In this document: in pieces, positions 29,775-64,000 of the stretch
How positions within the stretch are numbered: the stretch's first letter is position 1
How the letters are laid out: every line of letters starts with the position of its first letter
Origin: an uncultured Dehalococcoidales bacterium
Lineage (GTDB): Bacteria; Chloroflexota; Dehalococcoidia; E44-bin15
Length of the DNA stretch: 64,000 bases
Assembly: GCA_964428725.1 (NCBI GenBank)
Contig: CAYRYW010000001.1
Coordinates: forward strand, 73,238-137,237
Direction of reading: 5' to 3'
The notes under the pieces: model-generated
What the model saw: the letters and a program-made list of their open reading frames with translations, nothing else
Databases searched by the model: none
What the model was told of the DNA's origin: nothing
Program-made: the position numbers and the translations under genes

Positions 29775-29863
29775 GGAGAGGTGTCCGAGTGGTTCATGGT
29801 GCCGCTCTCGAAAAGCGGTCTCGCCTCTGGCGAGCGTGGGTTCGAATCCCACCCTCTCCGCCA
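29775..29863 (+). tRNA. tRNA-Ser(CGA)
   Basis: GGAGAGG/CCTCTCC acceptor stem, anticodon arm ccgct-CTCGAAA-agcgg, long variable arm, GGTTCGAATCC, encoded CCA; TATAAT at 29760-29765. Confidence 0.97.
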
Positions 29864-30980: not shown

Positions 30981-31070
<90 letters not shown>

Positions 31071-41671: not shown

Positions 41672-42478
41672 GTGCGCGGCGGGTATCGACTCGGCTGGTT
41701 CTCCACAGGGCGCGGCGAAGGCTCGCGCAACCTGCTGCGCGCGGTATGGGACAGCATCACCTCGGGTGAGATAAAGGCGGACATATCCTTCGTCTTCTGC
41801 AACCGTGAATACGGCCAGGCCGAGGGCAGCGACGCATTTATCGATCAGGTTAAAGGCTACAGCATACCACTCGTCTGCGTATCGTCAAAGAAGTTCAGGG
41901 ACAAATACGGCGACCAGTGGCGGCCCAGGTTCGAGGAGGCGGCGATAGAGAGCCTCGCGGGATACGATGCAGACCTCGTCGTCCTCGCCGGCTACATGCT
42001 GGTCGTCGGCGCCGATATGTGTCGGCGCTACCCCATGCTGAACCTGCACCCCGCCCTTCCCGGCGGGCCGAAGGGGACGTGGAAAGAGGTCATCTGGGAG
42101 CTGATGGACAGGGGCGCGGTCGATACCGGCGTGATGATGCACCGCGCCACGCCGGTGCTGGACGAGGGCCCGGCGGTGACCTACTGCAGGTTCTCCATAC
42201 GCGGCGAGCCTTTCGATAAGCTATGGGACGACATACAGGATCGTTCCGTCGCCGATATACAAAATCAGGAAGGCGAGGAGAATGCGCTGTTCAGGGAGAT
42301 ACGTCGGCATGGTGCGTCGCGCGAGCTGCCGCTGATCGTCGCCACCATCAAGGCCTTCAGCCAGGGGCGTGTGCGCATCGAGGGCAATGGCATCGTCGAT
42401 AGCAGGGGTAAACCGATAGAGGCGTACGACCTGAGCATGGAGGTGGATAAGGCGGTTCAGTCGTCATTATCCGCCTGA
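41672..42478 (+). CDS. Formyltransferase-family protein (PurN-like)
   Basis: WFSTGRG, LAGYML, NLHPALPGGP, H...DEGP motifs. Confidence 0.8.
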   Translation: MRGGYRLGWFSTGRGEGSRNLLRAVWDSITSGEIKADISFVFCNREYGQAEGSDAFIDQVKGYSIPLVCVSSKKFRDKYGDQWRPRFEEAAIESLAGYDADLVVLAGYMLVVGADMCRRYPMLNLHPALPGGPKGTWKEVIWELMDRGAVDTGVMMHRATPVLDEGPAVTYCRFSIRGEPFDKLWDDIQDRSVADIQNQEGEENALFREIRRHGASRELPLIVATIKAFSQGRVRIEGNGIVDSRGKPIEAYDLSMEVDKAVQSSLSA

Positions 42479-42865
42479 GGCGAATGATCCAGATGTAGGG
42501 GCGAATGACTATTCGCCCTTCTAGATTGCCCGATCAAGTCAGGAAATGACGATTATGAGTGGGGTGATCACAGGAGTGTCGCCGGTGTCGTTGCGAGGAG
42601 TGGAGCGACGAAGCAATCCCGGTGGTGTGTGGCAGGGTGATGACGGGTGTGAAGGCGGGCGATGAGATTGCTTCGCCTCCGCCTGAGGCGGGCGGATGGG
42701 CTCGCAATGACAGAAGGTGAATGTGGGCGTTGAGATTGCCGCGCTCGCTTCGCTCGCTCGCAATGACAGAGGGAGATTGCGTTTGCCTGCAGTGGTGTGA
42801 CGAATGTTGTGTCTTACGTGTCATTGCGAGGAGTTCGCCTCTGGCGAAACGACGAAGCAATCTCT
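42462..42865. repeat. Cluster of REP-like palindromes: four TGTC-tagged units, one GTAG-tagged hairpin and one CGTC-tagged hairpin
   Basis: TGTCRTTGCGAG...GCAATC units at 42586-42620 (+), 42664-42712 (-), 42732-42768 (-) and 42819-42865 (+); GTAG-GGGCGAAT-gact-ATTCGCCC at 42495-42518; CGTC-tagged hairpin at 42462-42487. Confidence 0.85.
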
Positions 42866-42911
42866 AGGTTAGTCGTAACATGAGCAGAAGGTTGATGGGA
42901 GTGAGCAGCAG

Positions 42912-43883
42912 ATGAACCTCATCTTCTTCGACATGGAAGGACCCCTGTCGATGCAGGACAACGCCTGCGAGATGATGAAGCTGTTCCCCCGCGGCGGCGA
43001 GATATTCGACGTCATCAAACGCTACGATAGCCTGCTCGCTGCTGAAGGCGGCGACCACTACGACCCCGGGTACGGCGTGGCGCTCATAGTCCCGTTCCTG
43101 ATCCACCACGGCATCACGGTCGATGACATGAGCCGCCTTGCCGACAGGGCGGTCATCATTGATGGCGCCCGCGAGCTCATCGCCAGCCTCAAGCGATGGC
43201 AGGTTTTCTGCGTTACCACCAGCTACGAGCAGTACGTCGCCCGCATCATGCAGCGCGTGGGCATCGATCGGCATAACGTCGCCTGCACCCGTTTCCCCCT
43301 GCAGCGCTACCGCAGCCTGGCGTGTGAAAATGACCATGCGCTGGTGCACCGTATCGAGGAGGAGATGCTCTCCCTGAGTCGCGAGGACGTCGCTGGCATT
43401 AAGTCGTGCCTTGACCGCTTCTTCAAGGTGGAGCTGCCCCGCACCAGCTTCGGTGTAGCCATCGCGGAGATGAAGCCCATGGGCGGGCGACCGAAAGCGG
43501 CGGCCCTGCGGAATTTCGCCCGCATCCGCGGCCAGTTCCCTGAACAGGTGGTGGCTGTCGGCGATAGCATCACCGATTCGCGCATGCTGGAGACCGTCGA
43601 CCGCGAGGGAGGGCTGGCCATCGCCTTCAACGCCAGCGAGCACGCACTGTACTACGCCACCGTCGGTCTTGCCTCGACCAGCATCGCTGACCTCAAACCG
43701 ATCCTGGACATTTGGGAGAAAGGTGGACGGGAAGCGGTCAAACAGGCAATCGAACGAGAGTCGAAAAAACAGACTGAGAGTTCGAAGTTCCAGTGGCTCG
43801 CCGACCGCTGCAATTTGGATGAAGCACTCCAGCTACACCGCAAAGCCCGACAGCGGGTGCGGCAGACGGCCGGGCTTGGTTGA
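42912..43883 (+). CDS. HAD-superfamily hydrolase (EhaR-like)
   Basis: FFDMEGPLSMQDNA motif I, VTTSY, VGDSITD motif III/IV. Confidence 0.75.
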   Translation: MNLIFFDMEGPLSMQDNACEMMKLFPRGGEIFDVIKRYDSLLAAEGGDHYDPGYGVALIVPFLIHHGITVDDMSRLADRAVIIDGARELIASLKRWQVFCVTTSYEQYVARIMQRVGIDRHNVACTRFPLQRYRSLACENDHALVHRIEEEMLSLSREDVAGIKSCLDRFFKVELPRTSFGVAIAEMKPMGGRPKAAALRNFARIRGQFPEQVVAVGDSITDSRMLETVDREGGLAIAFNASEHALYYATVGLASTSIADLKPILDIWEKGGREAVKQAIERESKKQTESSKFQWLADRCNLDEALQLHRKARQRVRQTAGLG

Positions 43884-63553: not shown

Positions 63554-63699
63554 TTGTCATTGCAATTAGTTGGGGCGGGTTGTAAACCCGCCCTGCGCGT
63601 ATGGGGCGGACGCATGATTTCGTGAGGGATGTCGTATTTCCAGTGTCATTGCGAGGAGTCCGCCTTTGGCGGGCGACGAAGCAATCCCGGTGGTGTGTG
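63554..63699. repeat. REP-like cluster upstream of the GIY-YIG gene
   Basis: Truncated TGTCATTGC (63555-63563); GTTG-tagged GGGCGGGTT/AACCCGCCC hairpin (63569-63593); full TGTCATTGCGAGGAG...CGACGAAGCAATCCC unit (63644-63688). Confidence 0.85.
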
Positions 63700-63703
63700 T
63701 AAT

Positions 63704-63991
63704 ATGAAACGCAACTACTACGTATACATCATGGCAAATAAGGGAAACACCGTTCTATACACAGGTGTCACCAATGATCTGCAAAGGCGGGTATACGAAC
63801 ACGGGGAGAAGCTGGCTGAAGGCTTCACAAAGCGGTACAACGTGTGCAAGCTGGTGTATTATGAGGCCTTCGACGACGCTGATAGCGCCATTTCAAGGGA
63901 GAAGCAGATTAAGAGTGGCTCCAAGCAGAAGAAGAACGAGCTTGTTGAGGGTATGAATGCCTCGTGGGATGATCTGTACGGCGAATTGTAG
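63704..63991 (+). CDS. Small stand-alone GIY-YIG nuclease (95 aa)
   Basis: YYVYIM...LYTGVT, RRVYEH and REKQIK motifs; ATG 63704 lies immediately after the REP unit. Confidence 0.9.
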   Translation: MKRNYYVYIMANKGNTVLYTGVTNDLQRRVYEHGEKLAEGFTKRYNVCKLVYYEAFDDADSAISREKQIKSGSKQKKNELVEGMNASWDDLYGEL

Positions 63992-64000
63992 GGATTATCG

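Follow-up and report, generated by a model that had tools for sequence, protein, structure and literature searches.

Organization of the repeat cluster

The DNA analysed here, a 64-kb window of the genome of an uncultured Dehalococcoidales bacterium (Chloroflexota), carries a cluster of tagged hairpin repeats in the 433-nt gap between a formyltransferase gene and the co-directional gene of a HAD-family hydrolase downstream of it. The repeats begin with CGTC or TGTC tags and resemble repetitive extragenic palindromic (REP) sequences, and a gene for a GIY-YIG nuclease of the Ssn type, located 21 kb from the cluster, is enclosed by arms of the same TGTC repeat. The genome comprises 2.6 Mb in 141 contigs, with a G+C content of 54.5% and an estimated completeness of approximately 70%. 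Plain coordinates refer to the window, and those with a prefix refer to contigs (C) of this genome (G000) or of others. The features are listed in Table 1.

The cluster is made up of one classic CGTC doublet (family 2), one complete TGTC doublet formed by units A and B, and two half-doublets, represented by units C and D. The left arm of the CGTC doublet overlaps the end of the upstream gene: its stem is built from TCATT/AATGA plus CGCC/GGCG, its TGA loop (42476-42478) serves as the stop codon of the formyltransferase, and the last five codons together with this stop are now encoded by the repeat. Next comes a GTAG hairpin, whose 8-bp stem (GGGCGAAT/ATTCGCCC) is perfect and ends at 42518. Both hairpins had been described in an earlier, sequence-only reading of the window, and they are present exactly where that reading placed them. 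The same holds for four TGTC units in the order +,-,-,+, with A and B 43 nt apart, and for their inner parts, namely TGGAG in A and mini-hairpins with TGA, TCT and TTT loops in B, D and the unit at 63644, respectively. The degenerate minus-strand unit at 42521-42551 had been overlooked.

The first 11 nt of the spacer between A and B are identical to positions 63689-63699, which follow the left repeat arm and precede the Ssn start codon. Unit D lacks its right-hand partner in the cluster, and this partner is present in a paralogous array at G000:C1:139076-139492.

Two minus-strand open reading frames (ORFs) cross the array (42534-42860, 108 aa; 42539-42763, 74 aa) and are repeat artefacts. When translated, TGTC-family units give motifs (VIARSEATKQS and ...LAMT are examples) from which spurious "hypothetical proteins" could arise. 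A scan of the whole window against Rfam at gathering thresholds returned no match at the cluster, the sole matches in the window being two tRNA genes (29775-29860 and 30981-31067), and neither a terminator-like nor a promoter-like site turned up when 42300-43000 was scanned for both.

Table 1 Positions of the genes and repeat units considered in this study
Feature	Position	Strand	Remarks
Formyltransferase ORF	41672-42478	+	PF00551
CGTC doublet (family 2), left arm	42462-42492	+	Tag 42462-42465; tail CCAG
GTAG hairpin, central spacer of family-2 doublet	42495-42518	+	GTAG at 42495-42498
Degenerate right arm of family-2 doublet	42521-42551	-	Reads CGTCATTTCCTGACTTGATCGGGCAATCTAGA on the minus strand
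TGTC unit A, short class-A form	42586-42620	+	TGTCGTTGCGAGGAGTGGAGCGACGAAGCAATCCC; inner part TGGAG
Spacer of doublet A-B, 43 nt	42621-42663	.	First 11 nt GGTGGTGTGTG
TGTC unit B, class B	42664-42712	-	Inner hairpin CCGCC-TCA-GGCGG (CCGCC-TGA-GGCGG on the opposite strand)
TGTC unit C, class B without inner hairpin	42732-42768	-	Half-doublet; a spacer-like fragment precedes it
TGTC unit D, class A	42819-42864	+	Inner hairpin TTCGCC-TCT-GGCGAA
HAD-family hydrolase ORF	42912-43883	+	
Class-A TGTC unit, left arm of nuclease gene	63644-63688	+	TTT loop
GIY-YIG nuclease gene, 95 aa, single domain	63704-63991	+	PF01541 only; SsnA homologue
Short degenerate right arm, directly after nuclease stop	from 63992 (window ends at 64000)	-	GGATTATCGCGCAATGACA; G000:C1:137229-137247
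RAYT-like ORF	G000:C1:36994-37569	-	Best match REP_Tyr_transpos
RAYT-like ORF	G000:C3:23870-24652	-	Best match REP_Tyr_transpos
RAYT-like ORF	G000:C72:4660-5562	-	Best match REP_Tyr_transpos

The TGTC family across the genome

Approximately 52 TGTC units were found in the genome. A pattern describing the full unit matched 45 sites, compared with none for a reversed-pattern control; the family is therefore not a chance assemblage, and the earlier description of the cluster as a gene-less array of a dispersed repeat family is borne out. The consensus unit reads [TC]GTCATTGCGAG, a variable inner part, and CG[AT][AG]GCAATC[TC]C, so that a 5-bp ATTGC/GCAAT clamp encloses 9-32 nt of inner sequence and a CYC tail follows. 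Class A units have an inner part of the form GAG...CGA, which class B units lack, and a class-A unit on one strand is usually paired with a class-B unit on the other.

The units do not occur only singly: 17 of the 29 adjacent unit pairs are inverted in the +/- arrangement, in which the heads point outward, the tails point inward and a spacer of 17-67 nt separates the two units. As single-stranded DNA (ssDNA), the A-B doublet folds into one long hairpin (-28 kcal/mol, z -3.45), whose outer stem of 12 bp is formed by the two heads and whose inner stem of 9-13 bp is formed by the two tails. Single units fold weakly (z +0.2 to -2.6), and the stable fold is thus that of the doublet rather than of the single unit.

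A perfect stem of at least 5 bp is found within the inner part of 69% of the genome's units, compared with 9% of shuffled sequences, and the inner sequence itself is nearly free, with 42 distinct versions among 45 units. One module, CCGCC-TSA-GGCGG, appears in three outer contexts: class A units, class B units and family-2 arms. The inner part can thus be described as modular, but the "modular exchange" of inner hairpins previously proposed for these repeats is not supported as such, exchange not being separated here from insertions and deletions combined with compensatory change.

The A-B pair at 42586-42712 recurs elsewhere in the genome with its spacer, at 80-91% identity (C36:14045-14170, 91% over 126 nt; C34:12481-12588, 81%; C1:139108-139233, 80%), and the whole A-B-C-D composite recurs at C1:139076-139408 (72% over 339 nt). 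The 2.3 kb directly 3' of the Ssn gene (G000:C1:137296-139492) are dense in TGTC units and hold this A-B-C-D paralogue with its fifth unit. The stretch ends in a run of N, which suggests that the assembly probably breaks at TGTC repeats.

Target duplications were sought at the borders of 86 doublets (k = 2-5, offsets 0-4) and none was detected, the observed counts being equal to those expected. This argues against transposition of the DDE type and fits single-strand or repair-based copying. [quoted passage not shown]

The CGTC doublet family and the GTAG hairpin

The segment 42462-42551 matches four other loci in the genome, and alignment combined with motif search yielded approximately 13 family-2 doublets in total. 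Their general form is CGTCAT-stem-loop-stem-ATCCAG, spacer, CTGGAT-stem-loop-stem-ATGACG, with stems of 9-10 bp and loops of 3-5 nt. Intact right arms at the other loci read GTCATTGCCCGACTTGATCGGGCAATCCAG (9-bp stem, 5-nt loop), and the family-2 stem ATTGCCCGA/TCGGGCAAT encloses the loop CTTGA and is followed by the tail CCAG. The spacer of five family-2 copies holds a GTAGGGGCGAAT...ATTCGCCC hairpin; in the remaining copies it is unstructured.

Family 2 and the TGTC units have the frame [CT]GTCAT...ATC in common, and the sequence GTCATTGC...GCAATCC is found both in the family-2 right arm (GTCATTGCCCGAC...GGGCAATCC) and in TGTC units. On the basis of this common frame and arm sequence, they represent two families of one superfamily. 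The cluster had previously been viewed as a mixture of two REP classes; this view was abandoned, and GTAG as an independent second class was ruled out at the cluster, since the GTAG hairpin is the spacer of the CGTC doublet. A GTAG-type hairpin may have been captured in one such spacer. Nor was the co-location of GTAG-type and TGTC-type units at 63.55-63.70 kb, which had also been proposed, confirmed: the hairpin at 63.57 kb has no GTAG tag and reads GTTGGGGCGGG.

Free-standing GTAG palindromes also occur in the genome, for example perfect "double-foot" ones (GTAGGGGCGATTAATTAATCGCCCCTAC) at G000:C29:18607-18634 and C52:6179-6206. They belong to a small set of GTAG hairpins that may represent the cognate REPs of the subclass 2.4 REP-associated tyrosine transposases (RAYTs) of this genome.

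Insertion into a gene junction that is closed in most relatives

The HAD protein served as query against 40 family- to class-level relatives, and the 15 loci with both genes on one contig were taken as informative. The two genes abut or overlap in 10 of these, typically with stop and start codons sharing ATGA (...GCCAAATGAACC...), and the other five have gaps of approximately 30-620 nt containing unrelated sequence, in one case a small ORF. The TGTCATTGCGAG head was absent from all 15 formyltransferase-HAD junctions of the relatives, so that the cluster is not a static feature of orthologous positions. The junction in G012 is free of units, although that genome carries 57 of them elsewhere. 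Because the genes abut or overlap in most relatives and no junction carries units, the cluster is interpreted as an insertion. The length of the formyltransferase C-terminus was kept (EVDKAVQSSLSA versus EIDEKVKGALAK, each followed by the stop).

In another relative (L131, G014:C127), the formyltransferase and HAD frames are continuous without a stop codon and form a 419-aa open frame, a possible natural fusion.

An Ssn-type nuclease gene inside the same repeat

The GIY-YIG gene at 63704-63991, the only Ssn copy found in this ~70%-complete genome, sits between the inverted arms of a TGTC doublet. The label "nuclease-free" given earlier to the array is therefore apt for the 400 bp of the cluster and does not extend to the repeat type, which houses this gene. 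Over 27 nt, comprising the tail of the arm and the first 11 nt beyond it, the nuclease element is identical to unit A and the start of the A-B spacer.

The encoded protein was compared with the 94-aa gonococcal orthologue of SsnA, which was retrieved by tblastn of a plasmid collection as a 94-aa ORF with 12 copies of the neisserial NTS repeat within 1.5 kb. The two proteins are 49% identical over 89 aa without gaps (E 2e-32), and Y8, Y19 and E66 align to the catalytic residues Y6, Y17 and E64 of SsnA, as numbered in PMC11893778. The 95-aa protein falls within the limit of E < 1e-10 by which Chenal et al. defined SsnA homologues. The gonococcal matches, NZ_CP119140.1 and NZ_CP119142.1, are 2.17-Mb Neisseria gonorrhoeae chromosomes that are filed as plasmids and almost unannotated.

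Homologues of the gene were detected in 74 of 401 Chloroflexota genomes, in one to four copies, some with internal stop codons. Strict bracketing of the gene by outward heads was observed at 12 of 30 Chloroflexota loci, compared with none of 30 control windows, and the head variants GCGAG, CCGAG, CTGAG and CCGAA co-vary with the ssn locus. The gene is present in 27 of the 50 genomes with at least five units and in 47 of the 351 others (odds ratio 7.6, p 8e-10, not corrected for phylogeny). Among the 120 cross-phylum loci listed (see below), five hold homologues 54-63% identical to the protein inside the same doublet, and at two loci (L108 and L120) the arms form near-perfect 33-nt inverted repeats. 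The 95-aa protein is the candidate cognate enzyme of the repeats.

At the locus L201 (G180:C1:583300-583720), a different CGTC-type hairpin, CGTCACTCCCGCGAAAGCGGGAGTCC, occupies the position at which sister species carry the ssn module.

Distribution across bacterial phyla

The exact pattern TGTCATTGCGAGGAG-N(4-30)-CGACGAAGCAATC was found at no fewer than 120 loci in many phyla. These include Chloroflexota, Patescibacteria, Bacteroidota, Ignavibacteriota, Verrucomicrobiota, Nitrospirota, Planctomycetota, Desulfobacterota, Gemmatimonadota, Bacillota and Campylobacterota, as well as Alphaproteobacteria, among them a complete Bradyrhizobium genome. The usual form in the cross-phylum loci listed is a +/- doublet of 75-130 nt. 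Within the window's own phylum, units occur in 68 of 401 genomes, and their number ranges from 0 to 428 per genome within one genus. In the plasmid collection, the unit was found in two Methylosinus records only.

G377, a repeat-rich Chloroflexota genome with 428 units, contains doublets with non-coding spacers of approximately 380 nt as well as tandem arrays, an organization too irregular for insertion boundaries to be defined in it. At L178:10000-11080 of this genome, two tandem copies of an element of approximately 455 nt are bounded by the same TGTC heads, and in each copy other repeats lie within the non-coding spacer of about 380 nt.

Origin of the cluster

The cluster is probably a gene-less array of CGTC/TGTC-tagged REP hairpin repeats, of the kind that pairs with Ssn, which was inserted into the junction between the two genes. 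Extrapolating from experiments with homologues, each unit would fold whenever the DNA becomes single-stranded, as it does in replication, in repair and when DNA is taken up. The unit would then be bound, through its conserved frame of GTC, stem and C, by the Ssn homologue at 63704-63991, which may cut a few nucleotides 5' of the tag. If the resulting breaks are repaired or copied, doublets could spread without target duplication, and gene-less doublets may have arisen as internal-deletion derivatives of the arm-ssn-arm module.

A more far-reaching proposal is that Ssn also multiplies the hairpins, which would make it the enzyme of a second, non-HUH system resembling REPINs (inverted REP doublets), in which a bare 95-aa GIY-YIG ssDNA nickase and its arm-gene-arm module give rise to gene-less doublets by cut-and-copy, leaving no target duplication. 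The long-armed TGTC family with its free inner hairpin, whose sequence is almost invariant in more than ten phyla, would then be a widespread and so far uncounted branch. We put this forward tentatively and regard it as somewhat doubtful. Mobilisation of the repeats by Ssn is a hypothesis that can be tested, given that doublets lack target duplications, that spacer sequence is common to them and the ssn module, and that copy number within one genus ranges from 0 to 428.

Several observations weigh against the preferred reading, that of an array of Ssn-related repeats. The nearest dispersed copy of the A-B pair is only 91% identical, so that there is no sign of recent movement here. Family-level relatives and the genus g117 reveal where the element is present or absent, but their intergenic DNA is too diverged to place exact insertion boundaries. 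The published Ssn-related motif (SRM) has no hits in the window, and units A-D and the arms of the nuclease gene are unmatched by it. Here it is the tails of the arms that point towards the gene, and in the gonococcal locus it is the heads. The biochemistry and biological role of Ssn come from Neisseria and Wolbachia, whereas the present protein and units are known from sequence alone.

The most serious alternative is that the repeats owe their spread to another process, for instance recombination, slippage during replication or another enzyme, and that the cluster is a passive target array rather than a product of Ssn. Under variants of this explanation, the Ssn gene is a selfish element that homes to the spacers of doublets, or else a host factor for which the repeats serve as marks, for instance when it restricts incoming single-stranded DNA as in Neisseria. 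The exact placement of the gene at the position of a doublet spacer, with the 11-nt spacer start in common, fits homing as well as the preferred reading. No Ssn match (E<=1e-8) was found in 23 of the 50 unit-rich genomes, and the tandem arrays with a regular period (L155) look like local amplification. In Neisseria, the role shown for Ssn is to modulate transformation (PMC11893778), which also counts against the preferred reading. Of 11 g117 genomes, 9 carry the ssn module, all at a single orthologous locus, and two lack it; the module thus behaves like a resident gene passed on vertically and not like a mobile one, much as RAYTs do.

Against a passive array stands the range of 0 to 428 units within one genus, which calls for an active copying process, and no other candidate enzyme was found adjoining units. 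The co-variation of head variants with the ssn lineage also fits co-evolution of enzyme and repeat, although it is no proof of mobilisation. On balance, we consider spread by other means unlikely.

A further alternative, in which one of the RAYT-like Y1 transposases of the genome moves the units as classical REPINs, is highly improbable. The genome contains four Y1 genes, namely one IS200 TnpA gene and the three RAYT-like ORFs. The latter find their best match in REP_Tyr_transpos (NF047646), all below the curated cut-off. Inverted doublets do resemble REPINs, and the absence of target duplication would also fit HUH enzymes. However, the 1 kb to either side of each of the four Y1 genes contains no TGTC head and no GTAG hairpin (GTAGGGGCG), and only one of the 120 cross-phylum loci listed contains even a weak RAYT-like match. 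Furthermore, the motifs NHIH / WQ / YIxNNP and NHFH / YIDLNP assign the ORFs to subclasses 2.4 and 2.1 of Quentin 2018, which pair with GTAG REPs or with none (Quentin 2018), and CGTC REPs are without Y1 association in PMC3733652. A RAYT link was therefore ruled out, there being no units near the Y1 genes and no fit of the subclasses. The earlier designation of the array as REPIN/MITE-like thus stands for its form, inverted doublets, and fails for the partner, which is an Ssn-type GIY-YIG gene; no Y1/RAYT gene is flanked by units.

Equally improbable is that the host selected the cluster as a structured element (terminator, attenuator, mRNA stabiliser or protein-binding site) by which a formyltransferase-HAD operon is regulated: REPs act in such ways in E. 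coli, the cluster lies between co-directional genes and its intergenic RNA folds better than shuffles (z -3.87), but the scans described above yielded no terminator-like or promoter-like site and no Rfam match, the same units occur at about 50 unrelated sites, and the overlap of the genes (ATGA) without a spacer in most relatives means that no such element is needed.

Comparison with known systems

The closest known system is the Ssn nuclease with its NTS/SRM repeats (Chenal et al. 2025, Nat Commun 16:2388, PMC11893778). The SsnA protein of Neisseria meningitidis, 94 aa long and with GIY-YIG as its single domain, belongs to the family cd10448; it binds the NTS CGTCATTCCCGCGMAVGCGGGAATCYRG only as ssDNA and cuts a few nucleotides upstream; cutting is governed by the three bases before the palindrome, and binding by the C after it (PMC11893778). 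The units described here conserve GTC before the stem and C after it, the same positions that matter for SsnA. Among regions around ssnA homologues, 71% carry related motifs (SRM), 42% on both sides, and the authors noted the NTS-ssnA-NTS layout, similar to that of an insertion sequence, as a hypothesis only; the demonstrated role in Neisseria is control of transformation, and the role outside Neisseria was left open (PMC11893778).

Both systems have a 94-95-aa single-domain GIY-YIG protein with aligned catalytic Y, Y and E residues. In both, the gene lies among tagged hairpin repeats of the frame [CT]GTCAT-stem...stem-ATC and is flanked by them on both sides, and gene-less copies number tens to hundreds per genome in many phyla. 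They differ in unit architecture: the published repeats consist of one 8-9-bp stem, whereas the present units combine the 5-bp ATTGC/GCAAT clamp with a modular inner part of 9-32 nt. The published motif, HGTCWYN(0-2)YYVSBRHN(0-5)WNVSBRGN(0-2)RNCYNB, was implemented as a regular expression and validated on the gonococcal locus, where it gave seven hits. It gave 17 hits in the present genome, compared with 15-24 in shuffled sequence, and matched only 3 of 30 Chloroflexota ssn loci. Surveys based on the SRM motif consequently undercount Ssn-repeat pairs, as the motif misses this architecture.

The repeats themselves belong with the CGTC-tagged REP superfamily (Di Nocera, De Gregorio and Rocco 2013, BMC Genomics 14:522, PMC3733652), of which Neisseria dRS3 and Rickettsia RPE-4/6 are members and for which no Y1 association was found. 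NTS is the dRS3 repeat, CGTC-1 in the scheme of Di Nocera. As in that superfamily, all units here begin with [CT]GTC-AT (an unpaired CGTC/TGTC tag, then A-T at stem positions 1 and 2), end in a short unpaired tail, form dimers or heterodimers with structured spacers, and have no associated Y1 transposase. Family 2 (42462-42551) fits fully the published description, which gives a stem of 8-9 bp, a loop of 4-5 nt and a tail near CCA. TGTC units A-D differ in that they lack the 8-9-bp stem and 4-5-nt loop of the four published families. The TGTC family sequence was not found in the text of PMC3733652 or in the supplementary material searched with it, and literal sequence searches of the literature returned chance primer matches only.

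The REPIN-RAYT system and the bacterial interspersed mosaic elements (BIMEs) of E. coli (Bertels and Rainey 2011, PMC3116915; Ton-Hoang 2012) are similar in their inverted doublets, conserved spacers, long hairpins and clustered arrays, in a low-copy nuclease gene bracketed by its own repeats, and in the absence of target duplication. The enzyme, however, is an HUH-Y1 transposase in those systems and a GIY-YIG nuclease here; their tag is GTAG rather than CGTC/TGTC, and their repeats are lineage-specific, whereas the present sequence is conserved across phyla.

Both the class of repeats (2013) and the nuclease (2025) have been published before, and the present locus is not a new kind of system. 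What is new is the long-armed, modular TGTC architecture, which lies outside the published SRM motif, and the novelty is modest. With this architecture, the pairing of Ssn with repeats extends to Chloroflexota (Dehalococcoidia-like genomes) and many other phyla, and the units are new candidates for sequences recognised by an enzyme family that has been suggested as a tool for single-strand DNA. The cluster also illustrates what such repeats do to a genome: an overlapping stop/start junction was split, a protein C-terminus and its stop codon were rewritten, and spurious ORFs that pollute annotation were created.

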